From Gammaproteobacteria bacterium (lineage in GTDB: Bacteria; Pseudomonadota; Gammaproteobacteria; Eutrophobiales; Eutrophobiaceae), in the NCBI GenBank assembly GCA_030829955.1, contig JAURNY010000018.1, positions 94,377 to 158,376 on the forward strand: 64,000 bases of DNA. Direction: 5' to 3'. How positions within the stretch are numbered: position 1 is the first letter of the stretch; each line of letters starts with the position of its first letter. Both the position numbers and the translations under genes were made by a program. Positions 15,873 through 46,937 of the stretch are shown one piece after another. The notes under the pieces are model-generated. The model saw nothing but the letters and a program-made list of their open reading frames with translations, had not been told where the DNA came from and made no database searches.

Positions 15873-16748
15873 TTAAGCAATAAATGTTGCTGAATCCGGT
15901 TCATCAATAATAGGGTTAGTTAACTTACCGATTTTCTCAATTTCTATGGTCACAGTATCACCGACATGCATGTAACCACTCGGTTTCATCTTTACGCCGA
16001 CACCACTACTGGTCCCCGTTGCAATTATATCTCCCGGTTCTAGTGTTATGACCTGAGATAAATAATGCACAAGAAAATAACAATCATAGATAAGATGTTT
16101 AGTATTTGAGTCCTGACGTTTGTCATTATTAACCCAGGTTTTAATATCCAGTTTATGTGGATCGCCAATCTCATCACGGGTAACTATCCAGGGACCAATC
16201 GGACCATGTGTGTCGAATGATTTTCCAAGCGTCCAGGTATGTGAGCGCATTTGCCAGTCACGTACGCTAACATCATTCACAATCGTATAACCGGCAATAA
16301 CTTCTTTTGCCTGTTCTAAAGTAACATTACGGCAACGTTTACCAATAACCAAACCAAGTTCACCTTCATAGTCGAGTTTTTCTGAAACCTTTGGCAAATG
16401 AATGGGTGCTCCAGTGCCAATGACACAACTATTTTGCTTATTAAAAAAGGTTGGATATTCAGGTTTATCCAATCCGGTTTCGGCAATGTGATCTGCGTAG
16501 TTTAGCGTGACACCGAATAACTTATCTGGCTTGAGAATAGGAGAGAGAATTTCAATATCATCAATATTGATACGGTCTGCATCATCATTAAGTATTTCCT
16601 GCATAGACTGAATAGCAGTAGCACCATCGGATAAAAACTGTTGCATACCTTTATCGTGATGATATGCCTCTGGGGCAGGACAGATACCCTGTGCATCTAA
16701 AACACCAACTTGAATACTGTCTTGATAACGATATGTGAGTAGTTTCAT
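15873..16748 (-). CDS. fumarylacetoacetate hydrolase (FAH) family protein
   Basis: 291 aa. FAH-fold motifs (DYEGELGLVIGK, VNDVSVRDWQ). Confidence 0.85.
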   Translation of the reverse strand: MKLLTYRYQDSIQVGVLDAQGICPAPEAYHHDKGMQQFLSDGATAIQSMQEILNDDADRINIDDIEILSPILKPDKLFGVTLNYADHIAETGLDKPEYPTFFNKQNSCVIGTGAPIHLPKVSEKLDYEGELGLVIGKRCRNVTLEQAKEVIAGYTIVNDVSVRDWQMRSHTWTLGKSFDTHGPIGPWIVTRDEIGDPHKLDIKTWVNNDKRQDSNTKHLIYDCYFLVHYLSQVITLEPGDIIATGTSSGVGVKMKPSGYMHVGDTVTIEIEKIGKLTNPIIDEPDSATFIA

Positions 16749-16766
16749 GATGAGAATCAGTTATTT

Positions 16767-17108
16767 TTAACCAATTATATCAATTGCCGCTTTAATAAAA
16801 AATCGTTCATGAGCAATGCTTTTGTGAATTAACCAATTTCTCTCTAATAGAAATTCTTTAAGTTTATTTTGAAAAGACTCAGGGCATGAATCATCTTTTT
16901 CGACTATGTTGACAGCTCTGCCTCGAGTATAAGAACGATACTTTTCTAAAAGTAGAACAGCCTTTACCTTTAACTTTGCTTTTTTTAATACAATAGAATG
17001 ACTGAGAGCATTTTCTACGTATTGAATAGCGCATACAGACTCGCCAACTAAGAAATATAGGTTTAGCTCTTGTTGTGAAGCTGTTTTAAATCTGGATTTC
17101 TTGTCCAC
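16767..17108 (-). CDS. hypothetical protein
   Basis: 113 aa, no recognisable domain. Likely co-transcribed with the FAH gene (19-nt gap). Confidence 0.4.
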   Translation of the reverse strand: MDKKSRFKTASQQELNLYFLVGESVCAIQYVENALSHSIVLKKAKLKVKAVLLLEKYRSYTRGRAVNIVEKDDSCPESFQNKLKEFLLERNWLIHKSIAHERFFIKAAIDIIG

Positions 17109-17285
17109 TTTGAATCCTTACAAAATATTTTCCATGTTCTACAATTAATTGTTTGCAAATGCTAACTTGTCAGTTGTCTTATGTTTACTTAGGGCTGTCA
17201 GTTTTATTATAAGGTAATATATGGTTTATTTAATTTTTGGCTTATTTTATTATCTAATTTGTTGAAATAATTAATAATAAGTCAG

Positions 17286-17936
17286 TTGAACAAAGAAAAA
17301 CGCTCGCTTATATTTTCTAAATTATGGGAACAGAATCCTAATCCCACTACTGAGCTCGTCTACAATTCGCCATTTGAATTATTAATTTCGGTGATCCTTT
17401 CTGCACAGGCGACCGATGTTAGTGTAAACAAGGCAACGAAACCATTATTTAAGTTTGCCAACACACCTGAAGCGATTCATGCGCTTGGGCTAACTAAGTT
17501 GAAACACTACATTAAAACCATTGGCCTTTATAATAATAAGGCGAAGAATATTATCGAGACCTGTAAAGCACTTATAGATGAGCATGATAGTGAGGTGCCA
17601 CAGGATAGAGAGGCATTAGAGAAACTTCCCGGGGTGGGAAGAAAAACGGCGAATGTGATATTAAATACGGCGTTTGGTGAACCTACTATCGCAGTGGATA
17701 CACATATCTTCAGGGTGTCGAATCGTACTGGAATTGCGCCAGGCAAAAATGTGCTGGATGTTGAAAAGAAGTTATTAAAACTTGTTCCGGATGAATTTAA
17801 AAAAGATGCGCACCATTGGCTGATTTTGCATGGACGCTATACTTGTATCGCTAGAACCCCGCGTTGTGCTAGTTGTGTTATCTTTGATGAATGTGAATGG
17901 CGACCCAGATTTAAACAGGCAGAGAAAGACAATTAA
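17286..17936 (+). CDS. nth: endonuclease III (DNA glycosylase/AP lyase)
   Basis: 216 aa with a TTG start. HhH-GPD motif (LPGVGRKTANVILN) and a C-terminal 4Fe-4S cysteine cluster (C-x6-C-x2-C-x5-C). Confidence 0.9.
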   Translation: MNKEKRSLIFSKLWEQNPNPTTELVYNSPFELLISVILSAQATDVSVNKATKPLFKFANTPEAIHALGLTKLKHYIKTIGLYNNKAKNIIETCKALIDEHDSEVPQDREALEKLPGVGRKTANVILNTAFGEPTIAVDTHIFRVSNRTGIAPGKNVLDVEKKLLKLVPDEFKKDAHHWLILHGRYTCIARTPRCASCVIFDECEWRPRFKQAEKDN

Positions 17937-17941
17937 GCATT

Positions 17942-18373
17942 ATGTTATTTAATAATCGAGATGAAACCCGCAAGGTCTTTTTTTCTGTATGGCAGAAAGT
18001 GCAGGTTGGGAAACAGCTTGAACCAATGGAGTCGATTATTGCCGATGTTATTAATCTGCACCCCGAGTATCAGAAAGTATTGGAAGACGAGGAAGAGGGT
18101 GTATTATCTGAATTCAAACAAGAGCAGGGGATGACCAACCCTTTCCTTCATATGGGATTGCATATTGCATTGCGTGAACAATTGGCAATGAATAAGCCCG
18201 ACGGGATAAAACAAATATATGAGCAACTTAGCAGACAATACCCGGATATTCATCAGCTTGAGCACAGTATGATTGATTGTCTGGCAGAAGCATTGTGGTT
18301 GGCGCAACTAAACAATACATTGCCAGATGAAAAACAATATCTCGACAAACTAAAACGATTACTAAACACATGA
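17942..18373 (+). CDS. DUF1841-family protein
   Basis: 143 aa. Recognisable DUF1841 pattern (FFSVWQK...LHPEY...NPFLHMGLHIALREQL...MIDCLAEALWLAQ). 4-nt overlap (ATGA) with the downstream phosphatase gene. Confidence 0.7.
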   Translation: MLFNNRDETRKVFFSVWQKVQVGKQLEPMESIIADVINLHPEYQKVLEDEEEGVLSEFKQEQGMTNPFLHMGLHIALREQLAMNKPDGIKQIYEQLSRQYPDIHQLEHSMIDCLAEALWLAQLNNTLPDEKQYLDKLKRLLNT

Positions 18374-19644
18374 GCCGCAATGTCTATGATTTGTTAACCT
18401 CGAAAAAGGGGCACTCTCTTGAAGAACAGCTCGCTTTACTTGCAGACATCTCACAAAGTTTTTCCAGTTCATTATATATAGAAGATACATTTCAAACTGC
18501 GATTATGCGTTTTATGGAATATATGGACGCGGAAGCAGCTTCTATTTTTTTATTACAAGGAAATAATAAAGAACTTGTGTGTATGGATTGTGCCGGTCCT
18601 TTTGATATAACCGGTTTAACGTTTGCAGCCAATCAAGGTATTGTTGGTAAAACGATTCAAACTCTTAGTTGCCAGTTAATTAGTGATGTTTCGAAAAACC
18701 CGGATTTTTCTAAAACCATTGATATTGGCACTGGTTTTCAGACCCGTTCAATATTATGTGTGCCCTTAATCGTCAATGAACAGTGTATTGGTGCGCTTGA
18801 GTTATTGAATAAAAAGAATGGCAAATTATTCGATGAAGATGATCGTCATCTATCTGTCGCACTGGCATCAGCAGCGGCGCTGGCGATTAATAACTCGAAA
18901 ATGGCAGAAGCATTACTTGAGCAGGAACGAATGCAAAAGGAACTGGAACTTGCCAGAGATATTCAGCTGGATTTATTGCCGGAAATGGATAGTGATTTTC
19001 CTATAAATAGTATCAATGTGCCTGCATATGAAGTGTCAGGTGATTTTTATGATTTCTTTAAACTTGATGATGGTCTGATCTATTTTAATCTCGCCGATGT
19101 GTCAGGTAAGGGAATGAATGCGGCTTTATTGATGGCACGTGCAAGCAGTTTATTACATCATCTGGCAAAATGTATTGATGATCCTGGCGAACTTTTAGCG
19201 CGAGTAAACGATGAATTATGTGAAACCATTTCGCATGGTATGTTTATTACGATTGTTTCCGGCTTCATTGATACAGAAACCTGCATTATCAAATTTGCCA
19301 ATGCCGGTCATCAACCACCACTATTTCATCATGCATCTGGTGATTTTGAAGAGATTCAAGCAGAAGCACCTCCCCTTGGAATATTACCCGGTGCAGAGTT
19401 TCCGGTAACGGAAATCAAATTGAATGATGGTTGTATTTATTTATTTACTGATGGCGTAACAGAAAGCATGGATGAGTCCCATCATGCATTGAATGTCGAT
19501 GGTTTAATTAATTTGATTGAGAACAACAGTAAGAAAGTCGCCTCTAAACGACTTGAAGATATTGTTGCCAGTATTCGTGATTTGGAGTTAAAACAGCGCG
19601 ATGATATCACCATGATGGTGATTGAATGTTGCAAGCATAAATAA
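18370..19644 (+). CDS. GAF-domain PP2C/SpoIIE-family serine phosphatase (RsbU/BtrU-like)
   Basis: 424 aa. N-terminal GAF domain and C-terminal PPM phosphatase (DVSGKGMNAALLMA...FTDGVTE...DDITMMVIE). Confidence 0.85.
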   Translation: MSRNVYDLLTSKKGHSLEEQLALLADISQSFSSSLYIEDTFQTAIMRFMEYMDAEAASIFLLQGNNKELVCMDCAGPFDITGLTFAANQGIVGKTIQTLSCQLISDVSKNPDFSKTIDIGTGFQTRSILCVPLIVNEQCIGALELLNKKNGKLFDEDDRHLSVALASAAALAINNSKMAEALLEQERMQKELELARDIQLDLLPEMDSDFPINSINVPAYEVSGDFYDFFKLDDGLIYFNLADVSGKGMNAALLMARASSLLHHLAKCIDDPGELLARVNDELCETISHGMFITIVSGFIDTETCIIKFANAGHQPPLFHHASGDFEEIQAEAPPLGILPGAEFPVTEIKLNDGCIYLFTDGVTESMDESHHALNVDGLINLIENNSKKVASKRLEDIVASIRDLELKQRDDITMMVIECCKHK

Positions 19645-20054
19645 TGGAAACCTTGTTTGAAATTCGTTTTCCGGCTTGTCCTGACAGATTGTGCATGATC
19701 CGTTCAATGGTCAGAAATACTGCGCGAGTTTGTGGCTGTAGTTCAGATCTGGCAGAACATTTAGTTATCGCTGTAAACGAGGCATGCATGAATGTGATTC
19801 AACATGCCTATCAGGGAGATGAACAGGGTGAAATCATTTTAAAAATGCTAAATAATGAAGGCAGCTTATATTTTAAACTATATGATTATGCGAACCCGGT
19901 TAATCTTGAAGATATAAAGTCTAGAGATTTGAATGATTTGAGGCCAGGGGGATTAGGTATAAATTTTATTAATGACATTATGGATGAATGTCATCGGGGA
20001 CATTTGGATGAGGGTAAAGGAAATTACCTCGAGATGATTAAAAAAATAACATAG
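19644..20054 (+). CDS. anti-sigma regulatory factor, HATPase_c serine kinase (RsbW/BtrW-like)
   Basis: 136 aa. GHKL N-box (AVNEACMNVIQHAY) and G-box (GGLGINFI). Start overlaps the phosphatase stop (TAATG). Confidence 0.85.
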   Translation: METLFEIRFPACPDRLCMIRSMVRNTARVCGCSSDLAEHLVIAVNEACMNVIQHAYQGDEQGEIILKMLNNEGSLYFKLYDYANPVNLEDIKSRDLNDLRPGGLGINFINDIMDECHRGHLDEGKGNYLEMIKKIT

Positions 20055-20069
20055 ATAAATAGGGTTCCC

Positions 20070-20420
20070 ATGGATATTAATATCACAAAATATGATGATT
20101 TTTCTGTTGTTGAATTAGTAGGTGATGTGGATCTTTCTTGTTCTCCCGACGCACGTACGCAAATTCTGAAAGTGTTAAATAATGAGACTGATTTAGCCGT
20201 AAATCTCGAAAAAGTGACTTATATTGATAGTTCAGGTATTGCCAGTCTGGTAGAAGGCTATCAAATAGCCAAAAAGAAACAATTGAGCTTTGCTCTGGTG
20301 TCAGCAAGTCCGGCAGTAATGAGTGTCCTAACATTGGCAAGACTAGATATGGTGTTTCCAATGTTTGCCAATCTCGAAGAATACAAAGCTAATCAAAGTG
20401 CATTAAAAAACCGGCGTTAG
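20070..20420 (+). CDS. STAS-domain anti-sigma-factor antagonist (RsbV/BtrV-like)
   Basis: 116 aa. STAS fold with the phosphorylatable serine in YIDSSGIASL. Confidence 0.88.
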   Translation: MDINITKYDDFSVVELVGDVDLSCSPDARTQILKVLNNETDLAVNLEKVTYIDSSGIASLVEGYQIAKKKQLSFALVSASPAVMSVLTLARLDMVFPMFANLEEYKANQSALKNRR

Positions 20421-20679
20421 TCGTTTTTTTATAAAAATTGCTCAGAATTAGTTAGCAGATGAAAACCCCATTTTAATGCCTGCTAATACAATCAAATCAC
20501 TATCTTTTAATTGATAAGCTTTGCCACCAATCGCTTCACCATTAACCTAAGGATGACGTTTGCCATCGCTAATTCCTATCCCCATTTAATAAAGCGCAAA
20601 CGCCGGTATTATTGAATGTAGGCAATTGTTTATATTTCTTGAGAAATTTAAGGAAGTTCTGATTACCTTAAGAGGTAGA

Positions 20680-21003
20680 TTATCTTTCAAGATAGTCAAT
20701 TTTGCCGGTTTTGTCTTTCCAGTCATCTGCGTTATCCAGAGGACTTTTCATTTCATTAATAACAGGCCATTCTTGGGAGAGTTCTGCATTGAGCTCAATA
20801 AATTCCCGCTGATTTTCTGGTACATCTTCATCAGACATGATGGCTTCTACCGGGCATTCAGGTTCGCAAAGTGTGCAGTCGATACATTCATCAGGGTCAA
20901 TCACCAACATATTGGGACCTTCATGAAAACAGTCTACCGGACAGACTTCTACACAATCAGTATATTTACACTTTATACAACTTTCTGTAACGACAAATGG
21001 CAT
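20680..21003 (-). CDS. fdxA: 7Fe ferredoxin ([3Fe-4S][4Fe-4S], FdxA type)
   Basis: 107 aa. [18 protein letters not shown] and [12 protein letters not shown] cysteine clusters. Confidence 0.9.
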
Positions 21004-21077
21004 CGAATTTACCTATATTTATTTCTTAATTTATTGAAAGTGCGCATCATACTAGTTCCTGCTGCAGCACAAAAGCC

Positions 21078-21998
21078 TTAATTATCGTTACGCAGCAGTT
21101 CGGAGATTTCATCTGCCAGCGCAGTGCCTTTACTGAATTCGGCGATAGAGATTTGTTGTTGATGCAAGGCATTCATAAGCTGTATCTGTATTGTGTTGGC
21201 ATCACTATCCTTACAAAAGATTTGGATTTTCCTAGAGTCTTTGATGTCCACTTCAATTCGCTCTATGTTATTAATTTGCTTAAATATATCATTGATATTA
21301 GAGGGGGCATTCTGCTCAAGAAAGATACGGAAACACTGGCTTACACGCTTTAATTCTCCAACCGAGGTCGTTTTAACAAGTTTTCCCCGATTTAGCACAA
21401 CGATCTGTTGGCATATTCCCTCGATTTCTCCCAGATTATGTGAACTGATCATTAGACGATGATCAGCTGCAAGTTGTTTTAATAGCAGGTGTATATCATT
21501 AACGGCAACGGGGTCCAGACCCGAGGTTGGTTCGTCCAACATGATTAATTCGGGTTTGCCGATTAATGCCTGCGCCAACATGACTTTTTTTCGTTGACCA
21601 AAACTTAACGTTTCGGGGTATTGTATAGCCAGTGGCATGATATTGATCAGTGACAACACACGCTCGGTTTCGGTTCTTGCGGAAGCACGTGAAAAACCCT
21701 GCAGGCGCGCGAAATGACATAGTTGATGAAAAACGCTGATACTTCTGAACATGTTGATATCTTGGGGCAGGATGCTGATTCTGCCTTTCAAATTCTCACT
21801 ATGCGCAGATTTACCAAATATTTTGATATCACCTTTAGTTGGCCGTGTAAATCCGCACAACAGTGCAAATAAGGTTGATTTCCCGGCACCATTCGCACCG
21901 ACCAGACCAGTCGGTTCATTACCTATTAGTTCAAGATCTAATTCATCCAGCGCTTTAAGGCTGCCGTAGTGTTTTGATAATGAGTGGCAGGTAATCAT
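21078..21998 (-). CDS. ABC transporter ATP-binding protein with a ~80-aa C-terminal extension
   Basis: 306 aa. Walker A GANGAGKST, signature LSFGQRKKV, Walker B LIMLDEPTSGLD. Confidence 0.88.
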   Translation of the reverse strand: MITCHSLSKHYGSLKALDELDLELIGNEPTGLVGANGAGKSTLFALLCGFTRPTKGDIKIFGKSAHSENLKGRISILPQDINMFRSISVFHQLCHFARLQGFSRASARTETERVLSLINIMPLAIQYPETLSFGQRKKVMLAQALIGKPELIMLDEPTSGLDPVAVNDIHLLLKQLAADHRLMISSHNLGEIEGICQQIVVLNRGKLVKTTSVGELKRVSQCFRIFLEQNAPSNINDIFKQINNIERIEVDIKDSRKIQIFCKDSDANTIQIQLMNALHQQQISIAEFSKGTALADEISELLRNDN

Positions 21999-25419: not shown

Positions 25420-26340
25420 TCATGAGCATGTATCAGTGATTTCACATTGATAAGCAGTTGATTGCATACGCATTATGCTTTGTGAATAAAGCACTATGCT
25501 GAAGCGTCCATTATCTGTAGGATCGGAAATACAGCTTTGGGCGAATGTGCCGGCAGCAGGCGGTCCAAAGAAACCTTCAGGGGTGTTGTCTGTATCCGGC
25601 CAATAATGTCCATAATCAATTTCTGATTGTGGTGCTGAACCCTTGCCATAGCGCTGCCAAGCCCAAATCATACGATTCACAAAAGGAACAATTAACTGAA
25701 AACAATAACCAACATGGACTTTTAACAAATTTGCATCTTGTATGGTCTGTGCACTTGCACCAACCAGATTGGAATCACGGTACATTAAATTATCATTCGG
25801 AATGCCTAATACCGCTCCACGTTCATCATCATCAATCATGACACCATAATCACTGAATGAATCTGCATTGGGATTAACGACAGTGATATTGACATAACCA
25901 TCATCAATTTGCTGCTGCACGATTTGACGGGCACAAAGCACGTCATCAGACTCAAACGTATTGATATTTTTATCGAGTACCCCGCGTGTATTGGTATCAA
26001 CAATTTGTGTCGCACCGACTCGTGCTTGTCTGCCAGCATCTGTATTTAGGAATGTACTGGAGCAGTCTCCTGAATTATCCATATTAAGATAACTACTGGT
26101 ATAAAGTGGTGACATATTACTGGCAAACGCGAGCTGCATATTGGATAAACTGGCATGACTGATGCTACCGGCACGAACAGTTTGGAAGGTTGCATAATTG
26201 AGCGTGACTTTGGCCTGATATATCAGGGCAAACTGTAATATACCCATTACCAGCATGAGCATAACAGGAAACACTATCAGGAACTCCACCATAGCTTGTC
26301 CATGTTGTGAATTTATATAGTGTCTATAGATAATCATCAT
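25420..26340 (-). CDS. TadE/TadF-like pseudopilin (Tad pilus minor component)
   Basis: 306 aa. N-terminal TadE-like segment QHGQAMVEFLIVFPVMLMLVMGILQFAL (G/xxxxEF pseudopilin motif plus a hydrophobic helix). Confidence 0.7.
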   Translation of the reverse strand: MMIIYRHYINSQHGQAMVEFLIVFPVMLMLVMGILQFALIYQAKVTLNYATFQTVRAGSISHASLSNMQLAFASNMSPLYTSSYLNMDNSGDCSSTFLNTDAGRQARVGATQIVDTNTRGVLDKNINTFESDDVLCARQIVQQQIDDGYVNITVVNPNADSFSDYGVMIDDDERGAVLGIPNDNLMYRDSNLVGASAQTIQDANLLKVHVGYCFQLIVPFVNRMIWAWQRYGKGSAPQSEIDYGHYWPDTDNTPEGFFGPPAAGTFAQSCISDPTDNGRFSIVLYSQSIMRMQSTAYQCEITDTCS

Positions 26341-26351
26341 GCTGCAGCTGA

Positions 26352-26825
26352 TTATTTTTCCTGAATAATCTTTTTGATTTCTTCCAGCATATCGTAAGCC
26401 TTACCATATAGAGGATCTTGTTTATCAGCATAGACTAACATTTCACTTAAACTAAATGCTGTTTGTTTTAATTGTACGACACTCAGGTTATACCAGGCTT
26501 TTGAGTGTTTAGGATCACGAATGACCGCTTCTCGATAAAGATTCATGGAGGCATAAGGTCTTTCTGTTCTGACATAGATATTAGCCATACGAAACCAGTA
26601 CTCAGCTTCCTGTGGTAATTCTTTTATCAGAATTTCGTAATATTTCTCACCATTCTGCAGGTCATCATTTTCATATGCCTGATTCGCTTTTCGTTTAATT
26701 TCCTGCAAATCAACTTGTGGCTCTGCCTCTACTTCAGTTTTATTCTGTAATGTATTACATCCACCTAGTAACAAGGCGATAGTTATTAACAGAATAGGTT
26801 TAACAAAGAGCGTTAGATAATTCAT
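26352..26825 (-). CDS. tadD: TPR-repeat lipoprotein, TadD-like
   Basis: 157 aa. Lipoprotein signal (LLLGGC lipobox) and TPR repeats, positioned after tadC. Confidence 0.6.
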   Translation of the reverse strand: MNYLTLFVKPILLITIALLLGGCNTLQNKTEVEAEPQVDLQEIKRKANQAYENDDLQNGEKYYEILIKELPQEAEYWFRMANIYVRTERPYASMNLYREAVIRDPKHSKAWYNLSVVQLKQTAFSLSEMLVYADKQDPLYGKAYDMLEEIKKIIQEK

Positions 26826-27172
26826 ATGTCCTTCCAGATAAGACGTTGTCCAATTTCTAAATTCAAGGTTTGCAATTTATTCGCATTGAGTTCAATTACT
26901 CCCTGTGCTGAATGGCAGATGGAAAAGCAGCATGGTCTTAACGTCTTTACCATTTTTACAATACGACATTCCTTATCCACATAGATTAAATCAATGCTGT
27001 AACGCATACCCAATGTATGCACAGATGAGCATGGCGTAATATATAAAGCTTCATTTGCCTGTAATTTTTTTCTAAGCAATAAACCGCAGAGTCGTTCAAG
27101 AAAGTGCGTTGTTTTTTTTACATCGGGTAAAACACATTGCTCAGGTTCAATCATTAACCTGCCATGCTTCAT
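26822..27172 (-). CDS. DUF192 (COG1430)-like protein
   Basis: 116 aa. Size and pattern consistent with DUF192. Translationally coupled to tadC upstream and tadD downstream (4-nt overlaps). Confidence 0.5.
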   Translation of the reverse strand: MKHGRLMIEPEQCVLPDVKKTTHFLERLCGLLLRKKLQANEALYITPCSSVHTLGMRYSIDLIYVDKECRIVKMVKTLRPCCFSICHSAQGVIELNANKLQTLNLEIGQRLIWKDI

Positions 27173-28050
27173 AACATGCCTTCAGACATGAATTTCATCA
27201 CGATGGGGAATCCTAATACGATAAACGTTACCGGGAAGATAAACATGATCAATGGTCCGACCAGTTTGATCGGTGCTTCCATAGCCAGTTTTTCAGCGCG
27301 TTGAAAACGCTCGTTTCTGCGCTGGTCTGATTGTACACGTAATACAGTTGCCAGTGACGCACCCATCTTTTCAGCCTGAATAATCGAACTCACAAACCCA
27401 GTAATTTCCTGAATATTTAGTCGCTCCGACATACGTCTCAGTGCATCAGCTCTTGAAAGGCCTGCACGTAGATCACGTAATACAATAGAGAACTCATTAC
27501 GTAGTGGTCCAGGAGGTGCTTTTTCCATTGCCTGTCCTAGTGCGCCTTGTAAATTTAAACCTGCTTCTACACACATCGTGATGAAATCCAGATAAACAGG
27601 CAATGTTCGTATTACTGCATTATCTCGTTTTTTTCGTGTGTCATTTAACCAGATGTTAGGAAATAAAAAGCCCAACACAGGCATAATCACAAACCAGACA
27701 GGTTGAAATTTATGCAGCATAATCATCATTAACAATGCGATGATTGGTGCAATGATTGCTGAAATAATTCTTAGCGCGATGAACTGTTCTGCATTTAATA
27801 AGTAACTAACACCAGAGTGGGTGATTTTCTTTTCAGTGCGTTCTAGAATTTCATAAGGAAAAAATACGACAAAGAAATTGGCAATGATTTGAATAAACGG
27901 CCAGATTATTTTTAATTTCCACGATAGAGGATCCATATAAGTACGATCTTCTTTATCGATCATTGAATAAACTGTACCGATTAAATATACGATCAGAAGG
28001 CCAGTTAGAAAATAACTTATGAGAGAGCCGTTGTAATATATAAAATCCAT
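27169..28050 (-). CDS. tadC: Tad pilus inner-membrane platform protein TadC (T2SS F family)
   Basis: 293 aa. T2SSF domain, second of the TadB/TadC pair. Confidence 0.85.
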   Translation of the reverse strand: MDFIYYNGSLISYFLTGLLIVYLIGTVYSMIDKEDRTYMDPLSWKLKIIWPFIQIIANFFVVFFPYEILERTEKKITHSGVSYLLNAEQFIALRIISAIIAPIIALLMMIMLHKFQPVWFVIMPVLGFLFPNIWLNDTRKKRDNAVIRTLPVYLDFITMCVEAGLNLQGALGQAMEKAPPGPLRNEFSIVLRDLRAGLSRADALRRMSERLNIQEITGFVSSIIQAEKMGASLATVLRVQSDQRRNERFQRAEKLAMEAPIKLVGPLIMFIFPVTFIVLGFPIVMKFMSEGML

Positions 28051-28061
28051 TACATTAGTCT

Positions 28062-28943
28062 CTAAACATCAATGCTTGTGATCTTACTAATCATGAAATA
28101 GCCCATAGCTTCCATCACAATAATAATTGTTAATACTACCCAGCCTATTGTCGTCGTCCAGAGTTTACTCATAGCTTCTGGCTCCATGAAATTCAGTAAA
28201 ACGCCAAGCAGTATAGGTAAGCCTGTCATCACAATGCCCTGTAGCTTTCCCTGCGCAGTTAAACTTTCAATCTTGCCTTCCATCATGGCTTTACGGCGAA
28301 GTGTTTCGCCTAGCGTTTCCATGGTTTCAGCAAGATTACCGCCAACTTCGCGGTTGATTAGCAGAGCGGTTACCAACATACCAAAGTCAGCTATTGGAAT
28401 TCGTTCTTCCATCTTCTTTATAGAGACTTCAAACTCCACGCCTAGACGTTGTTCTTTAAGAAACAGTTCAAATTCCTGTGATAGGGGGGCAGGTTGTTCC
28501 TTGACTAAACTTTCCAATGCAATATTCAAACTGGCGCCGGCACGCATCGCACCGGAAATCATTGCCAAACCATCAGGCATTTGTGCTTCGAAACGTTTCA
28601 AACGCTGTTTGCGCATTTGTTTATAAATAGCAGTTGGGAAAAATAAAATGAGTCCAAGCATGGCAACTGTGGCTGCCGTATCGCGCGTAACGACAAAGGT
28701 CAAGACTGGTAAAACAATAATGGCGATGATATTCATAGTAAAGAGCTGATTTGGATCAACTGTCATGAACATATCTGAGGCATTCGCTGTCGCTGTTGAG
28801 GTGAATGTTTGCTTATAATTATCAGCAAACTCCTGTACCTTTTTGCCAAGTGCAAACCAGATGATCGCAACTGCCAAAAACACAGCTGCTAACGATAAAT
28901 AATAAGTAACGTTTGCAGAAAGAGAAAGGAAGAAGTCCATCAT
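28062..28943 (-). CDS. tadB: Tad pilus inner-membrane platform protein TadB (T2SS F family)
   Basis: 293 aa. T2SSF domain, immediately downstream of the ATPase gene. Confidence 0.85.
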   Translation of the reverse strand: MMDFFLSLSANVTYYLSLAAVFLAVAIIWFALGKKVQEFADNYKQTFTSTATANASDMFMTVDPNQLFTMNIIAIIVLPVLTFVVTRDTAATVAMLGLILFFPTAIYKQMRKQRLKRFEAQMPDGLAMISGAMRAGASLNIALESLVKEQPAPLSQEFELFLKEQRLGVEFEVSIKKMEERIPIADFGMLVTALLINREVGGNLAETMETLGETLRRKAMMEGKIESLTAQGKLQGIVMTGLPILLGVLLNFMEPEAMSKLWTTTIGWVVLTIIIVMEAMGYFMISKITSIDV

Positions 28944-28948
28944 AATAA

Positions 28949-30643
28949 TTAAGAGAAGATAGACATATCCACTGGTAAACCTCGTTGACGCATCTCTTCA
29001 TAAAAATGAGGAATTGCACCGGTTGCTTCAAAACGACCCTTTACTTTACCGTTTTCATCAAAGCCTTCCTGTTGATAACGGAAGATATCCTGCATGGAGA
29101 CAATTCCCGATTCTACACCGGTAATTTCGGTAATGTTTATGACGCGTCTAGAACCATCTGAAAAACGGGTTTGTTGGACAACAATATGAATTGCAGAGGC
29201 GACCATTTCACGAATAGCAGAGACAGGTAAATCCATGCCAGACATCATTACCATGACTTCGATACGTGCAATCAAATCACGCGGTGTATTAGCATGCGCA
29301 GTTGTTAATGATCCATCATGACCCGTATTCATCGCCTGTAACATGTCCAGTGTTTCACCACCACGACACTCACCAACTACAATTCGGTCAGGACGCATAC
29401 GTAAACAGTTTTTTACCAAATCACGAATTGGAATAGCACCTTTACCTTCAAGGTTTGGAGGTCGTGATTCAAGACTAACAAGGTGTGGTTGTGCGAGTTT
29501 TAGTTCAGCCGCGTCTTCTACAGTAACGATACGTTCTGATGGAGGAATAAAGTTTGATAACACATTAAGTAATGTTGTTTTACCGCTACCGGTACCACCT
29601 GAAATAATAATATTCATATGGTTATTTACTGCAGTTTCCAGAAACTTAACCATGTTTTGATTTATGGCGCCAAAGTTAACCAGATCCTGTGCGACTAGTT
29701 TTTGCTTAGCAAATTTACGAATAGTTAAACAAGGACCACGTAATGCAAGCGGAGGAATAATAGCATTTACACGCGAACCATCTTTTAAACGCGCATCAAC
29801 CATAGGAGAACTTTCATCAATACGACGGCCTAGTGGTGAGACAATACGTTCTATAGCCGTCATTACCGCATCGTCACTTGAAAAGGTAATTCCTGATAAA
29901 CTTAATTTACCTGACTGTTCGACGTAAATTTCATCAAACTTGTTGACCATGATTTCAGTTACTGACTCATCTGCTAATAACTCTTCTAACGGACCGAGAC
30001 CTACGGCTTCGTTCAATACTTCTGCTGCCAGTTTTACTTTATCAACATCATTAGGCAATTTAGAACCCATCTCTTCGATGATTTCTTTAATCATGCCCTG
30101 GACATGTTTACGTAATTTTTCTTCATCCATGCTACCTATATCAGTGCGACGAAGATCCATCGCGGCTAATAGTTCATCATGTACACGATTACGCCATTTG
30201 AATTTTTCATTATGTTGAAGATTGATTAACGTTTTGCTGACTTCTTCTGATTCATCTAGTGCCTGATGATGTTGAATGCCGATGACCGTACGCATACCAT
30301 CAAATAAACTATCATCTTCTTCATCAATTTCATCCATATCGTTCGTTGCAGAACTCATGCCTGCCTTAATATAATATCCGGCGATAATGATTTCATCAGA
30401 AGATCGAATAGGACCGTGATGGTCGACATCAACACCATTGACCTCAATACGTTTCTGTCCGGTTTTATCTTCAATAAACAAACCTTCTGAAGTTCGATGT
30501 ATCTCTGCATGATGGGGTGCGACTTTCCAACCGCGTAACTGAATAAAGTTATCACGCGCCTTACCGATAGTGCACTCACTTACCGGACAATGAAAATTCT
30601 GTATTCTTTCGCCTTTACTATTATTTACGATGACATCAAACAT
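28949..30643 (-). CDS. tadA: CpaF/TadA secretion ATPase with an N-terminal FHA domain
   Basis: 564 aa. Residues 1 to ~100 show an FHA pattern (TIGKARDNFIQL...HAEIHRTSEGLFIEDK...NGVDV). The remainder is a T2SS-E/CpaF ATPase (Walker A GGTGSGKTT, Asp box, Walker B, His box). Confidence 0.88.
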   Translation of the reverse strand: MFDVIVNNSKGERIQNFHCPVSECTIGKARDNFIQLRGWKVAPHHAEIHRTSEGLFIEDKTGQKRIEVNGVDVDHHGPIRSSDEIIIAGYYIKAGMSSATNDMDEIDEEDDSLFDGMRTVIGIQHHQALDESEEVSKTLINLQHNEKFKWRNRVHDELLAAMDLRRTDIGSMDEEKLRKHVQGMIKEIIEEMGSKLPNDVDKVKLAAEVLNEAVGLGPLEELLADESVTEIMVNKFDEIYVEQSGKLSLSGITFSSDDAVMTAIERIVSPLGRRIDESSPMVDARLKDGSRVNAIIPPLALRGPCLTIRKFAKQKLVAQDLVNFGAINQNMVKFLETAVNNHMNIIISGGTGSGKTTLLNVLSNFIPPSERIVTVEDAAELKLAQPHLVSLESRPPNLEGKGAIPIRDLVKNCLRMRPDRIVVGECRGGETLDMLQAMNTGHDGSLTTAHANTPRDLIARIEVMVMMSGMDLPVSAIREMVASAIHIVVQQTRFSDGSRRVINITEITGVESGIVSMQDIFRYQQEGFDENGKVKGRFEATGAIPHFYEEMRQRGLPVDMSIFS

Positions 30644-30661
30644 AATTAAACCTGAATAAAA

Positions 30662-32161
30662 TTAATAAACGATATCGATATTATCTCTATCAATAGCCTC
30701 TATAGTTGCGCGTATGCCTTCCTCAGCATATTCAACCATGTCACGATTATGTTGAGATTGACCGTCGATAATTTCTGGCGTGACAAAGATAACCAGTTCC
30801 GTTTTATCATTAAGAAATGATTCAGAACGAAATAGGCGACCCAGAATTGGAATATCTTTCAAAAACTTGATGCCATTAATGGTTTCTGAGGCTTGTTGGT
30901 CAATAAGCCCAGACATCACTAGTGTTTCACCTGATTTCAAGATCACATCTGCTTCTGTGCGCCTAGTTAATAAACCGGGGATGTTATTAATCGCAACACT
31001 AAAATCCAGAGAGCTAATTTCGGTGGTGACATTGGCTCTGACATTATTATTACGATCAATTTCTGGCGTTACACTTAACTGAATACCATATTCCTTAAAT
31101 TCAACTGTCGTACCATTAATGGTAGAAATCTCAATTGGAAATTCACCACCAGCTAGAAATGTTGCTTCACCACCGCTACGGGCAGTTAAACGTGGTTCGG
31201 CCAGAATCACTGCATCGCCGGAACTTACCGCAAAATTAATTCGGGAAACAATTTCTGCCGCTATACCAAAGTAACCTAATGGACTACTGGCATTGTCCGC
31301 AGCACTTAAATTACCGGTAAAACTAGGTAAACCATTATCATCAGTAACTGTTGTTCCGCGAAACGTACTATTATTTACAGCATCAAAAGCAAAGGCAGCA
31401 GTAGGGCCAGAAACCGATGTATTCCAGTTAATGCCGAGGCTGTCAGTGAAAGATTTGCTGAATTCAGTAATCTTGGTGTTCATTAACACCATTTTGTTAT
31501 CCGGCATGTTCATATCGAGACTAGCACGTTGAGTTAAATCCATCAGTTCGCTGAATTTAGCCTGAACAGTTTCAATAGCAGTTGCATAACCATTATCAAC
31601 AGTACCACTCAAGACAATATTTTCACCGACAATTCGTACTTCAAGTCCTTCCAGTTCAGATAACAGATCTTCAATTTCGAGTTTTTTTCTAACCAAATCA
31701 TTAACAGCAAAATTAATATTATTAAGAATCTCCGGATAAGCTTCTATCAGCATCGCAATTTGAGCTTCATTGCCATAACCAACCTGTCCATTAAGGATAA
31801 TACGCTCACCAACAATATCTACATGTAAACCTGGTATATGAGCCAGAAGTTTCTCAATTTCATTTTTTCGTTGATTAATATTGTTTGAAGTATTTGCTAC
31901 ATGCACCATGTAATCTTTTTCAGTGCCATTACTAAACCAGACATGAACATTGGTAGAGCCCTCTTCTTCGGCAATTAGGATTAACTGACCGCTATTTAGT
32001 AGAGAATTACTTAACACCGAGGGACTGCCGACTGCAATACGTTCAATATTGCCAAGCTTTAATATTTTGATCTCACCAATATACATATCAAAGCGTTCAG
32101 CAGCATTTACCATTGCTGTGAGCATAAGCATGCTTAGGATTAATATTATTTTTTTCATCAT
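30662..32161 (-). CDS. rcpA: Tad secretin RcpA/CpaC
   Basis: 499 aa. Signal peptide, two N-terminal secretin-N/BON-like repeats and a C-terminal secretin domain (GIKFLKDIPILGRLF). Confidence 0.88.
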   Translation of the reverse strand: MMKKIILILSMLMLTAMVNAAERFDMYIGEIKILKLGNIERIAVGSPSVLSNSLLNSGQLILIAEEEGSTNVHVWFSNGTEKDYMVHVANTSNNINQRKNEIEKLLAHIPGLHVDIVGERIILNGQVGYGNEAQIAMLIEAYPEILNNINFAVNDLVRKKLEIEDLLSELEGLEVRIVGENIVLSGTVDNGYATAIETVQAKFSELMDLTQRASLDMNMPDNKMVLMNTKITEFSKSFTDSLGINWNTSVSGPTAAFAFDAVNNSTFRGTTVTDDNGLPSFTGNLSAADNASSPLGYFGIAAEIVSRINFAVSSGDAVILAEPRLTARSGGEATFLAGGEFPIEISTINGTTVEFKEYGIQLSVTPEIDRNNNVRANVTTEISSLDFSVAINNIPGLLTRRTEADVILKSGETLVMSGLIDQQASETINGIKFLKDIPILGRLFRSESFLNDKTELVIFVTPEIIDGQSQHNRDMVEYAEEGIRATIEAIDRDNIDIVY

Positions 32162-32205
32162 ATCTCTCTTCCTAACTCCTTATTCTTTACGCTTCATGAC
32201 TCAAT

Positions 32206-32460
32206 TTATTTAGTACGTTTCGGAAACACAGTAATCTGTTTTGCAACACCATTTTCTGATTGTCCACCAACAATCATTTTTATAGGTTTCCCCTGCAAAG
32301 CAAAATTATCTATATAATTTATTTCTTGAGTTGTATGTTTATTGAATTCAACTATCGGACTATCTTTCGACGTTGTTACAATCTCATTAAATTCCGAATC
32401 ATTCGCTTGCAATGAGCTGAATAAAAATAAACAAGCTGTGCCAGCGAACACTTTAAGCAT
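32206..32460 (-). CDS. small secreted protein paralogous to the C-terminal module of the upstream CpaB-like protein
   Basis: 84 aa with a signal peptide. Its C-terminus KMIVGGQSENGVAKQITVFPKRTK parallels the C-terminus of the 704-aa protein (ELIIGGSSEDGVAKSQKVALPVETK), with visible DNA-level similarity. Start abuts the upstream stop. Confidence 0.55.
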   Translation of the reverse strand: MLKVFAGTACLFLFSSLQANDSEFNEIVTTSKDSPIVEFNKHTTQEINYIDNFALQGKPIKMIVGGQSENGVAKQITVFPKRTK

Positions 32461-41052: not shown

Positions 41053-42702
41053 ATGAAAAAATATATGGATTTAAGTCAGAAAAACGTTCTTAATTTACTG
41101 CGCGAACTGAGTGAAATCGGAATAGCGCTGTCATCTGAGCAGAAACATGAAGAATTGCTTGAACTTATCCTTATTAAAGCGATGGAAATCACCAATGCTG
41201 ATGGTGGTACGCTTTACTCTAAAACCGAAGATCAAAAGTTAAAATTTGAAATTGTTCATAATCGATCCTTAGGTATTCATAAAGGTGGCACCAGTAATGA
41301 AACCATTACATTTTATCCTATTGCACTTTACAACGAATCAGGCGAAGCAAACATACATATGGTTGCTGCGTGGGCAGCTATCAGTGGTGACATAATTAAT
41401 ATCGAAGATGCGTATGCATCCGACAAGTATGATTTTTCCGGTACGCAAAAATTTGATGAAAAAACCGGCTATTACTCGAAGTCATTCTTGACTGTGCCAA
41501 TGCGGAATCATGAAAACGAAATTATTGGCGTATTGCAACTTATAAATGCAAAAGATAAAGCTAGTAATGAAGTCATACCTTTTGATGCGCTTGATCAACA
41601 GCTGGTGGAATCTCTTTCCTCACAAGCTGCAGTTGCAATTACTAATAAAATATTGATAGAGGGTCAAAAGAAACTATTTGATTCTTTTATTCAATTAATT
41701 GCTGACGCGATTGATGAAAAATCGCCTTATACCGCAGGTCATTGTCGTCGTGTACCAGTGTTGACCAATATGTTAGCCGATGCAGTAAACAATATTAATA
41801 TCGGTCCGTTAAAAGACTTTTCCATGACAACTGATGAAAAATATGAACTGGAAGTAGCCGCCTGGTTACATGATTGCGGCAAGATTACAACGCCGGAATA
41901 TGTTGTTGATAAAAGCACTAAATTGGAAACCATATATGACCGTGTGTATGAAGTTGATAAACGTATCGAGATATTAAGACGCGATGCGATTATTAATTAT
42001 CTCAAGGCGCGTGTTCTAGAATTAAATCCTGATAATGACATTGATATGTTATTGAAAGAGAGTAATGAATTACAGCAACAATTGACTGATATTGAACAAG
42101 CCCGTGAATATATACATCTTTACAATATAGGTGGTGAATCACTAAAAGATGATGACATCAATCGTATTTCAGCGATAGCAGAAATTGAATGGATAGACGC
42201 AGAAGGTAATATTAATAAATTGCTTGATTCAGAAGAAAAGGAAAATCTGGAAATAGGTCGTGGCACATTAACTTTAAGAGAACGTGAAATTATTAATAAT
42301 CATGTTTCTGTTACGATTAAAATGCTTGAGTCATTACCTTATCCCAAACATTTAAAACGTGTGCCGGAATATGCCGGGGGGCATCATGAAAAGATCGACG
42401 GTACAGGTTATCCGAATAAATTAACGGGCAAGGAAATGTCATTACAGGCAAGAATGTTGGCAATCGCTGATGTATTCGAAGCATTAACGGCAAGTGATCG
42501 GCCTTATAAAAAAGCGATGCCATTATCTCAATCGTTAAAAATTTTGGGTCAAATGAAATTGAATAAACATATTGATGCCGATTTATTTGATATCTTTATG
42601 AATGAAAAAATCTATCTCAGTTACGCAAAAGATTATCTCAATGAAAGTCAGATCGACGATATCAGGCATGAAGAAATACCTGGTTATCAAACTTTATCCT
42701 AA
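41053..42702 (+). CDS. GAF-domain HD-GYP phosphodiesterase (putative c-di-GMP phosphodiesterase)
   Basis: 549 aa. N-terminal GAF, then an HD domain (LHDCGK) with the HD-GYP signature HHEKIDGTGYP. Confidence 0.85.
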   Translation: MKKYMDLSQKNVLNLLRELSEIGIALSSEQKHEELLELILIKAMEITNADGGTLYSKTEDQKLKFEIVHNRSLGIHKGGTSNETITFYPIALYNESGEANIHMVAAWAAISGDIINIEDAYASDKYDFSGTQKFDEKTGYYSKSFLTVPMRNHENEIIGVLQLINAKDKASNEVIPFDALDQQLVESLSSQAAVAITNKILIEGQKKLFDSFIQLIADAIDEKSPYTAGHCRRVPVLTNMLADAVNNINIGPLKDFSMTTDEKYELEVAAWLHDCGKITTPEYVVDKSTKLETIYDRVYEVDKRIEILRRDAIINYLKARVLELNPDNDIDMLLKESNELQQQLTDIEQAREYIHLYNIGGESLKDDDINRISAIAEIEWIDAEGNINKLLDSEEKENLEIGRGTLTLREREIINNHVSVTIKMLESLPYPKHLKRVPEYAGGHHEKIDGTGYPNKLTGKEMSLQARMLAIADVFEALTASDRPYKKAMPLSQSLKILGQMKLNKHIDADLFDIFMNEKIYLSYAKDYLNESQIDDIRHEEIPGYQTLS

Positions 42703-43888: not shown

Positions 43889-44731
43889 ATGAAGACTTTA
43901 ATTAACACTAAAAACATGATTTTTATAGTTTTTTTAGCCATAACAGGTGTTGTTTTCGCTGGAGTTGCCCCAGAAGATTTTCGAGAAAAAAAATCTGACG
44001 AAGCTTGGGAAAAGAATTTGCGTAAGCAAAATTTTCAGGACAGGAAAATTATTATAGGTGTTGAGCAGAATATACTTGAAGTTAAAGCACCTTACACCGC
44101 AGAAGATGCGACAGTCGTTCCCGTATCTATACACACTAAAATTGATCAAACCCCGGAACGCTATATCAAGAAAATGCACATTTTTGTGGATAAAAATCCT
44201 TTGCCATTAGTAGGTGTTTTTGAATTCACGCCAGATAGCGGTAAAGCAGATCTCGCCATGCGAATTCGTGTCGATACGTTTAGTTATGTACGTGCCGTAG
44301 CGGAACTGAATACAGGTGAATTGTACATGGCGAAAAACTTTGTAAGGGCAAAAGGCGCTTGCTCCGCACCGCCACCAGCCAGTATGGAAGATTCAAAGAA
44401 ACTGCTGGGTAAAATGAAAATGAAGATGTTAGGGAATCTCAAGTATGGTGAACCTAATTTAATGCAAGTTAAAGTGCGTCATCCAAACATTACGGGTATG
44501 GCGCCATTAAAGATTGGTTCACATGTTATTCCCCCCGCATTTTATATGGATACTTTTGAAGTTACATATAATGATAAGCCGATTGTTAAAGCATTATTAA
44601 CGTTTTCTATCAGTATGGACCCGGCATTGCGTTTTTTCTTTGTGCCTAGAAAAGAAGGTGTTATGACAGTGAAAGGTACAGATACCAAAAAGAATGTCTT
44701 TAGTTCAACCTATGAAGTCAAAACCACATAA
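43889..44731 (+). CDS. fused SoxY-SoxZ-like sulfur carrier protein
   Basis: 280 aa with a signal peptide. N-terminal SoxY-like region with the Cys in a GACSAPPP linker, and a C-terminal SoxZ-like Ig fold (VKVRHPNITGM...PAFYMDTFEVTYNDKPIVKA). Confidence 0.6.
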   Translation: MKTLINTKNMIFIVFLAITGVVFAGVAPEDFREKKSDEAWEKNLRKQNFQDRKIIIGVEQNILEVKAPYTAEDATVVPVSIHTKIDQTPERYIKKMHIFVDKNPLPLVGVFEFTPDSGKADLAMRIRVDTFSYVRAVAELNTGELYMAKNFVRAKGACSAPPPASMEDSKKLLGKMKMKMLGNLKYGEPNLMQVKVRHPNITGMAPLKIGSHVIPPAFYMDTFEVTYNDKPIVKALLTFSISMDPALRFFFVPRKEGVMTVKGTDTKKNVFSSTYEVKTT

Positions 44732-45091
44732 GTGATAAGTTTCAGTATGTTTTGGAAATAATTATTAAAGGGGCAATATCATCCTGTTAATATTGATGAA
44801 CTTGAAGTCTGGGCTCAGGAAACCGAACCACAAGTGGAAAAAGGTATTCGTTCAGTTGAAGGCAAATGGAGGGTTATACTGGCCTCATATGAAAACTAGC
44901 AGATCGTATTTCAACAGCAAAATCAAATATTACAAGTAGGTATGGCGATTGATATTGATCAGGAATATATTAATTAACAAGCTTGGTTTAGATTAGTGAT
45001 AGTAAGTTACAGAGCAGATGCAAGTTTATTTTAGATGAAATGAAATCTACTTATGGTTTTTGCCAGCCCGCGCATAAGTAAGCGATAATAT

Positions 45092-46441: not shown

Positions 46442-46937
46442 TCTTGTCTTTGCAGAAACAATGCAAGGTCCAGGCTTAGGACATGCTGCGACTATTGACG
46501 AAGTCGCAAAATGGAATATCAGTGTTTTTCCTGATGGTGAAGGCTTACCAGAAGGAAGGGGCTCAGTTAGCGAAGGTGAGGTGGTTTACAATACACAATG
46601 TGTGGGGTGTCATGCTCAAGGTGGTATAGGTTCTGCAGTAGGTGATCAACTTGCTGGCGCACAAATGGAATTAACTAGTGATTATCCTGAAAAAACTATT
46701 GGCAAATATTGGCCTTATGCAACAACTGTGTTTGATGTTATTCGTCGATCTATGCCGATGACGACTCCCGGATCATTAACTGATAACGACGCGTATGCTG
46801 TGACGGCTTATCTTTTGTATTTGAATAATTTGATTGATGTGAATGCGGTGATAGATAAGTCATCCTTACCAAAGGTTAAGATGCCGAATGAAGATGGGTT
46901 TGTGAAAGTTTATGAAGTGAAGGAGACGAATAAATAG
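46392..46937 (+). CDS. mono-heme c-type cytochrome (SorB / short SoxD-like partner subunit)
   Basis: The track ORF starts at 46356 with a Met cluster. Proposed start is the internal ATG at 46392 (MKIKHSLTIVLIAVGINLVFA signal peptide). Single CVGCH heme motif. Overlaps the soxC 3' end. Confidence 0.65.
   Translation: MKIKHSLTIVLIAVGINLVFAETMQGPGLGHAATIDEVAKWNISVFPDGEGLPEGRGSVSEGEVVYNTQCVGCHAQGGIGSAVGDQLAGAQMELTSDYPEKTIGKYWPYATTVFDVIRRSMPMTTPGSLTDNDAYAVTAYLLYLNNLIDVNAVIDKSSLPKVKMPNEDGFVKVYEVKETNK

Follow-up and report, generated by a model that had tools for sequence, protein, structure and literature searches.

Here, we describe a three-gene partner-switching module, encoding a GAF-PP2C serine phosphatase, an RsbW/SpoIIAB-type serine kinase and a single-domain STAS protein, that lies behind nth and a DUF1841 gene in a 64-kb stretch of gammaproteobacterial DNA (contig JAURNY010000018.1, positions 94,377 to 158,376; hereafter the window, numbered from its first nucleotide). 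Judged from their sequences, the three genes are a genuine, intact partner-switching module of a conserved proteobacterial family that is apparently undescribed. We hold it to be an evenly balanced proposition that the module is a cyclic nucleotide monophosphate (cNMP)-controlled phospho-STAS switch that ancestrally gated an MCE lipid transporter, with the STAS protein as a phosphorylatable analogue of MlaB, and that it serves another partner in this genome. In about three quarters of the 76 related loci that could be assessed, a phosphorylatable STAS gene stands before MlaE, together with the kinase, a phosphatase with a cNMP-type GAF domain and often a CHASE2 cyclase. This arrangement is a concrete, testable regulatory circuit and is present in the cultured species Azonexus hydrophilus. 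On/off control of Mla/MCE lipid transporters is not known. If the proposal is true, post-translational gating of an MCE/Mla-type transporter would have its first natural example, the question of MlaB phosphoregulation would be answered, and the transporter-less version in the window would reveal a second cellular target of the switch. The lesson for the window itself is more modest, as the locus is an eroded copy and its link to DNA repair is inherited synteny.

The original prediction described a five-gene string from nth to STAS with a 5-nt spacer and ATGA and TAATG overlaps, containing a partner-switching trio in the order phosphatase-kinase-antagonist with a GAF input domain. The open reading frames (ORFs) and the sequence bear out the string, and Pfam and NCBIfam domain searches agree with the trio and with the GAF domain (Table 1). 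The STAS protein passes the TIGR00377 anti-sigma-factor antagonist model (67 bits against a cutoff of 53.45) and has as its nearest solved proteins the anti-sigma antagonists TM1442, SpoIIAA and RsbV. Its phosphorylation motif, D53-S54-S55-G56 (Ser54 codon at 20229-20231), is invariant among 78 homologues. For the kinase, the best solved relative is B. subtilis RsbW (6m36_A, 1.1e-11); the N-box NEACMNVIQHAY and the G2 box PGGLG are conserved and align to RsbW, and the G1 box keeps its Asp and reads D-x-A-x-P throughout the family. The phosphatase comprises a GAF domain (about aa 37-175) and a PP2C domain (about aa 234-419), whose motifs EVSGDFYD, DVSGKG, TDGVTE and DDIT, which form the metal site, are kept across 81 sequences with identities as low as 45%. 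In an AlphaFold2 model of the protein (predicted local distance difference test, pLDDT, 84), the PP2C half is nearest by fold to P. aeruginosa RssB and SiaA and to Rv1364c. The GAF-PP2C and kinase are fused in a single ORF in 15 relatives, namely L033 (5974-7671; 565 aa, with GAF, SpoIIE and HATPase_c_2 by Pfam) and 14 other loci such as L036, L050, L051 and L056, which gives domain-fusion support for the phosphatase-kinase pairing. Overall, we consider it likely that these proteins work as a phospho-STAS switch whose GAF input is of the cNMP type.

Related loci were found by a pattern scan over one genome per GTDB species, which confirmed matches to the phosphatase in at least 567 stretches of proteobacterial DNA; the 80 loci taken for comparison belong to uncultured gammaproteobacteria and to betaproteobacteria (Azonexus, Dechloromonas, Propionivibrio). 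Gene neighbourhoods were compared by tblastn and blastp, and could be assessed for the transporter in 76 loci and for the cyclase in 64. In 57 of the 76, MlaE, MlaF, MlaD and lipoprotein genes come after STAS on the same strand, in both proteobacterial classes and including cultured Azonexus hydrophilus (L053). In L003, Pfam identifies MlaE (280 aa), the ABC ATPase (265 aa), MlaD (336 aa) and, at a borderline score (25.8 bits against a cutoff of 26), a PqiC-type ABC_trans_aux lipoprotein (198 aa); A. hydrophilus has the same four-gene order, with a lipoprotein that has no Pfam match. The best solved relatives of the MlaF-type ATPase are the MlaF proteins of A. baumannii, P. aeruginosa and E. 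coli, and the MlaD/MCE protein of the relatives is long (304-336 aa). Spacing is tight throughout: the STAS gene overlaps MlaE by a median of 11 nt (gap -11 nt, with -8 nt recurring in many loci), and the median gaps that follow are +2.5 nt (MlaE to MlaF), +10 nt (MlaF to MlaD) and -4 nt (MlaD to the lipoprotein gene). No second STAS gene was found in the relatives' transporter clusters, and MlaE carries no fused STAS there. This neighbourhood points to a link between switch and transporter. The original prediction had left the output of the kinase wholly open; no sigma-factor gene was indeed found near the module, but the recurrent junction of STAS with an MlaE-MlaF-MlaD-lipoprotein operon supplies a candidate output.

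Two characterized transporters bear on this arrangement. The STAS subunit MlaB of E. coli binds MlaF and is needed for MlaF function; the MlaB Ser/Thr that corresponds to the SpoIIAA position is part of the interface with MlaF, a phosphomimetic T52E substitution weakens MlaF binding, and the authors of the MlaFB structure left phosphoregulation of MlaB as an open question (PMC7367683). Like MlaB, the STAS protein of the relatives is a single domain encoded with MlaE-, MlaF- and MlaD-type genes. Unlike MlaB, which has no known kinase or phosphatase, the module's STAS is SpoIIAA-like by sequence; the relatives' STAS gene stands before MlaE rather than at the operon end, and the window has no transporter. 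Brucella abortus MpcEFDA is a chimeric Mla-Pqi system with STAS fused to the N-terminus of MpcE (PMC12436622). The relatives' clusters share its E-F-D-PqiC-like order, and their free STAS gene, just before MlaE, sits at the exact position of the STAS domain in MpcE and is colinear with that fusion; it differs in being separate, predicted to be phosphorylatable, and provided with its own kinase and phosphatase, and the cluster is absent from the window. A literature search, with most subscription journals outside its coverage, found no description of partner switching (RsbW-type kinase, PP2C) tied to MlaB or MCE proteins.

The input to the switch is suggested by the GAF domain and by a recurrent neighbour. 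By sequence, the GAF domain is nearest to the cNMP-binding GAFs of PDE2A (GAF-B, 9e-20), PDE5, PDE10 and CyaB2, and its best fold match among GAFs is Leptospira Lcd1 bound to cyclic AMP (cAMP), with a template modelling (TM) score of 0.81. Alignment to PDE2A GAF-B shows that Ser58, TGFxTRS (from T121), Glu144 and the N-K...F...D residues are kept, here and family-wide; we take the S58, TGFxTRS and E144 positions, placed through this alignment, to be the cyclic GMP (cGMP) contacts of PDE2A GAF-B. The domain resembles the GAFs of PDE2A, PDE5/10, CyaB2 and Lcd1 in sequence, fold and the NK..F..D and TGFxTRS/E signatures, but in the window protein the NKFDE-type motif (N147, K148, F154, D158) ends in Arg instead of Glu. 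Immediately downstream, 23 of 64 loci carry on the same strand a gene for a CHASE2 class III adenylate/guanylate cyclase (about 750 aa). This gene comes straight after STAS in six transporter-less loci (for example L004, 8269-10521, and L010, 8113-10359) and behind the transporter in another 17, where it follows the lipoprotein gene (L014, L015, L020, L039-L049 and others). It is missing from the remaining 41, including all betaproteobacterial loci and the window. Because the GAF resembles cNMP-binding GAFs and, independently, a CHASE2 cyclase is a recurrent neighbour, cAMP or cGMP input to the GAF-PP2C phosphatase is the best-supported reading of these sequences.

In the mechanism that we propose, the switch would be the regulatory head of a conserved proteobacterial operon that in most relatives runs into an MlaE-MlaF-MlaD-PqiC-like MCE transporter, often followed by the CHASE2 cyclase. 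The RsbW-type kinase would phosphorylate STAS Ser54, the GAF-PP2C phosphatase would remove the phosphate, and the GAF domain would set phosphatase activity in response to cAMP or cGMP. Most likely, STAS without its phosphate would serve the MlaF/MlaE ATPase-permease of the relatives as an accessory subunit of the MlaB type and would be released on phosphorylation, so that an envelope signal might pass through the cyclase, cNMP and the phosphatase to gate lipid transport. We infer who phosphorylates whom, the binding of cNMP and the contact between STAS and MlaF/E. In the window genome, the transporter, the cyclase and an FHA/PP2C/Ser-Thr-kinase cluster are all absent from the locus, the last loss having left a stub; the switch sits alone behind nth-DUF1841, and its partner would be encoded at another site. 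We give close to an even chance, perhaps slightly under, to gating of the transporter by STAS in the relatives. The fuller claim, that STAS is a phosphorylation-controlled MlaB-type subunit through which a dedicated kinase and a cNMP-sensing phosphatase gate an MCE/Mla transporter, with a second cellular target in the window version, is put forward more tentatively and is somewhat the less probable of the two.

The history of the locus was traced through its neighbours. In a neighbour-joining tree of the phosphatase, transporter-positive loci occur in every deep clade, with several separate losses of the transporter; the 19 transporter-less loci and the window fall into several separate groups within one gammaproteobacterial subclade, and the window clusters with L001 and L009, both transporter-less. 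In the transporter-less relatives, STAS is followed by the CHASE2 cyclase or by a convergent FHA signalling cluster, in which an FHA protein, a PP2C Ser/Thr phosphatase and a CHASE2-Hanks kinase are followed by DUF4124, HDOD and fdxA genes. This FHA gene series is intact in L009 and L001. The STAS-fdxA gap of the window is 259 bp and holds an FHA pseudogene fragment, the last 38-39 codons of the FHA gene with an in-frame stop (84% identity to residues 201-238 of the L001 FHA protein, E 4e-17, tblastn). By its sequence, the stub is the scar of a deletion that removed the 5' part of the FHA gene, the PP2C gene and neighbouring signalling genes; judged from the L009 layout, roughly 3.4 kb was lost before fdxA, and the deletion is recent. 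The original prediction had placed a convergent fdxA after the module, and the position is correct, but it missed the stub, and the juxtaposition reflects this recent deletion.

No MlaE, MlaD or cyclase gene is present in the 64-kb window, and tblastn with the MlaE, MlaF, MlaD and auxiliary proteins of L003 gave as its sole match an unrelated ABC ATPase at 21078-21998 (27% identity). Among the best 120 database matches to the linked MlaE, all at about 67% identity or more, none belonged to the complete L009 chromosome or to the window's contig. To that depth, the search hints at true loss of the transporter rather than relocation, and the window is a stripped, eroded copy of the switch-transporter arrangement.

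Selection on the switch is similar whether or not the locus has the transporter. Within transporter-less clades, the ratio of non-synonymous to synonymous substitution rates (dN/dS) is 0.056-0.061 for the PP2C gene, 0.046-0.064 for the kinase and 0.089-0.114 for STAS, and values are similar in transporter-positive pairs for all three genes. When the window is compared with L001 or L009, synonymous change has reached saturation, with a non-synonymous proportion (pN) of 0.12-0.26. The STAS and kinase consensus sequences are identical between transporter-positive and transporter-less loci, and proteins identical to those of the window occur on 18-24 public contigs. Strong purifying selection on the window's switch implies that it must act on a partner encoded elsewhere. 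In one NCBI assembly of a near-identical strain (contig of 303,476 nt), the PP2C gene is split into 176-aa and 245-aa pieces and STAS is a 71-aa piece, reflecting either frameshifts or assembly errors.

Several observations weigh against a switch that gates the transporter. The STAS protein resembles SpoIIAA/RsbV by sequence and not MlaB: it scores 21.6 bits on the NCBIfam mlaB model NF033618 (cutoff 90) and finds no solved MlaB chain in the PDB even at E <= 10. The alignments do not reach the C-terminal part of MlaF by which E. coli MlaB is clasped, and the kinase G1 box has Ala/Pro at the position of Gly in RsbW (D-x-G). The link to the transporter comes from gene neighbourhood alone, and the linked-MlaE search yielded no L009 protein within its top 120. 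Finally, the switch is equally constrained after loss of the transporter, which means that the transporter is not its sole partner, or is perhaps no partner at all. This constraint is the chief argument against a purely MlaB-like role, and it keeps alive a classical anti-sigma switch, in which the kinase sequesters a sigma factor encoded elsewhere, unphosphorylated STAS releases it, and the transporter is merely co-transcribed or a member of the regulon. The kinase and STAS proteins are indeed nearest to RsbW/RsbV and SpoIIAB/SpoIIAA, and purifying selection without a transporter fits a housekeeping target present in every genome. Nevertheless, no protein of the module reaches the NCBIfam equivalog cutoffs for RsbW, SpoIIAB or SpoIIAA, the kinase falling far below them (63 against 145 for RsbW, 34 against 135 for SpoIIAB). 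The original prediction noted the lack of an adjacent sigma factor, and this holds: no Pfam sigma-factor domain was found in the scanned window ORFs (main non-overlapping ORFs of at least 110 aa, with 56483-57148, 61952-62788, 62671-63927 and ORFs overlapping larger ones left out), nor was one identified in the gene families that recur beside the switch in the 80 loci, of which only labelled families were assigned by Pfam. An anti-sigma role also leaves the tight STAS-MlaE junction across two proteobacterial classes unexplained, and we regard it as unlikely. Compared with RsbU-RsbW-RsbV and SpoIIE-SpoIIAB-SpoIIAA of Bacillus, the module has the same three parts (PP2C phosphatase, GHKL serine kinase, STAS protein bearing the DS(S/T)G phosphoserine motif), but it has no sigma factor in its operon or window, its order is phosphatase-kinase-STAS, its input is a GAF rather than an RsbU N-domain, and the relatives' operon runs into a lipid transporter.

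Other outputs were also weighed. The STAS protein or the kinase might bind and regulate the CHASE2 cyclase in the manner of HsbA-HsbD or SiaC-SiaD, with the GAF domain closing a second-messenger feedback loop; the position of the cyclase (directly after STAS in six transporter-less loci and after the transporter in 17), the cNMP-binding type of the GAF and the similarity of the PP2C domain to SiaA would fit. The switch is conserved, however, where the cyclase is absent (41 of 64 loci, with all betaproteobacterial ones and the window), and a cyclase beside a GAF protein is more simply an input than an output, so this loop appears improbable. Among Pseudomonas systems, HsbR-HsbA, RssB-RssC and SiaABCD are likewise PP2C/kinase/STAS-like switches of proteobacteria whose outputs are not sigma factors, and HsbR joins PP2C and kinase in one protein as the 15 fused relatives do; they differ in having receiver or HAMP inputs and in acting on RpoS, FlgM or diguanylate cyclases, whereas the module has a cNMP-type GAF input and its relatives a transporter neighbourhood. 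The original prediction likened the module to BtrU-BtrW-BtrV of Bordetella, which has the same gene order, and a switch of that kind could control a secretion or pilus machine, for example the Tad pilus with its FHA-CpaF 8 kb away (25420-38601). BtrUWV is likewise proteobacterial, with a non-sigma output, and the likeness is one of gene order. A connection to type III secretion finds no support: BtrUWV lies in the bsc type III secretion locus, whereas the window contains no genes for type III secretion, and the gene families that recur around the switch in the 80 loci include none for a secretion system or a pilus. In addition, fdxA, an ABC transporter and mutS stand between the Tad cluster and the switch. 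Phosphothreonine is the ligand of FHA domains, whereas STAS would be phosphorylated on serine, and the relatives' FHA/PP2C/CHASE2-Ser/Thr-kinase cluster is a more natural partner for FHA proteins. Control of such a machine is thus very improbable. FHA-CpaF, which had been suggested as a target, is an unlikely one in view of this phosphothreonine specificity and of the lack of conserved linkage. It is just as improbable that the switch is a functionless relic decaying after loss of the transporter. Its neighbourhood is eroded, with transporter, cyclase, FHA cluster and rnf genes all gone, and the close public assembly carries split PP2C and STAS fragments. The three ORFs of the window are nonetheless intact with catalytic motifs kept, non-synonymous divergence from transporter-less L001 and L009 is far under the saturated synonymous divergence, dN/dS is 0.05-0.11 inside other transporter-less clades, and identical proteins recur on 18-24 contigs.

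The coupling of the module to nth had been considered an unusual link between DNA repair and signalling. Instead, the sequences indicate that it is conserved synteny of two abutting operons and not an unusual functional link, since nth-DUF1841 is the tail of a common rnfABCDGE-nth-DUF1841 operon. In other gammaproteobacteria (L081-L084), DUF1841 closes this operon with no switch behind it. As in the rsx/rnfABCDGE-nth operons of E. coli and other gammaproteobacteria, nth is distal, with DUF1841 next in many gammaproteobacteria, but no rnf genes lie upstream of nth in the window. Among the related loci, nth is upstream in 48 and DUF1841 in 42, with median gaps of -7.5 nt from DUF1841 to PP2C and +48 nt from nth to DUF1841. 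A large gammaproteobacterial clade shares the nth(-DUF1841)-switch order, and betaproteobacterial and some gammaproteobacterial loci are without both genes. Read-through transcription from nth-DUF1841 into the switch is plausible. One Rnf-Nqr-type gene is kept before nth in some relatives, and none is found in the window. A 113-aa ORF without a Pfam match (16767-17108, minus strand) lies between an FAH-family hydrolase gene and nth, at the position where relatives such as L003-L013 have a 180-aa Rnf-Nqr-type gene on the plus strand.

The nth product is a HhH-GPD glycosylase that passes TIGR01083 (284 bits against a cutoff of 211.7) and whose translation contains the 4Fe-4S motif C-x6-C-x2-C-x5-C. 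Its N-terminus, MNKEKR, matches the canonical Nth start of E. coli. The DUF1841 protein is modeled as all-helical (pLDDT 90), and no solved fold relative of the model was found. Its nine invariant residues (H40, E42, H70, H74, E79, H104, E107, H108 and C113) are His, Glu and Cys, which hints at a metal site.

The five genes from nth to STAS lie head-to-tail on the plus strand, and their junctions, read off the sequence, are the 5-nt spacer between nth and DUF1841, the ATGA overlap of DUF1841 with PP2C, the TAATG overlap of PP2C with the kinase gene and a 15-nt spacer between kinase and STAS genes. Ahead of the string, 17109-17285 is the sole non-coding gap longer than 15 nt and is for that reason the likely promoter region. 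Scans of 16700-21100 for promoter and terminator consensus sequences gave no more matches than in shuffled sequence, and the hairpin at the STAS stop is indistinguishable from shuffled sequence, so it is the spacing and conserved order that suggest co-transcription of the five genes.

Table 1. Features of the partner-switching locus and its flanks (window positions)
Feature	Position	Strand	Basis
AT-rich intergenic region 5' of nth, likely promoter region (inferred)	17109-17285	.	read from sequence
nth, endonuclease III	17286-17936	+	TTG start; Pfam HhH-GPD 3.9e-25; TIGR01083
DUF1841 protein gene	17942-18373	+	PF08897, 2.1e-50
GAF-PP2C (SpoIIE-family) serine phosphatase	18370-19644	+	GAF 4.8e-13, SpoIIE 3.5e-42
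RsbW/SpoIIAB-type serine kinase, 136 aa	19644-20054	+	HATPase_c_2 4.5e-25
Single-domain STAS protein	20070-20420	+	Pfam STAS 4.8e-17; TIGR00377
A-tract/hairpin/U-tract over STAS stop, possible weak terminator	20404-20431	+	-8.5 kcal/mol, z = -0.46
FHA pseudogene stub	20451-20567	-	tblastn against L001
fdxA, convergent to module	20680-21003		NF045490, 1.6e-50

Elsewhere in the window, a Tad/Flp pilus cluster occupies 25420-38601 on the minus strand and comprises genes for TadE-like, TPR and DUF192 proteins, two TadB/C-type T2SSF proteins, a CpaF ATPase, a secretin, a 704-aa RcpC/CpaB protein with DUF3659-type repeats and a Tad/TadG-like protein. Its CpaF ATPase (28949-30643) has an N-terminal FHA domain, and no Ser/Thr kinase is nearby in the window. 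A second GAF signalling protein, with GAF and HD_5 (HD-GYP-like phosphohydrolase) domains, is encoded beside htpG (41053-42702, plus strand). Genes at 43889-46937 and 48072-50839 encode a fused SoxY-SoxZ protein, a molybdopterin oxidoreductase with a cytochrome c, and a phosphoenolpyruvate (PEP) mutase/phosphonopyruvate decarboxylase-like pair. Together with a G+C content of 39%, these genes suggest that the host is a marine sulfur-oxidising gammaproteobacterium with phosphonate biosynthesis.

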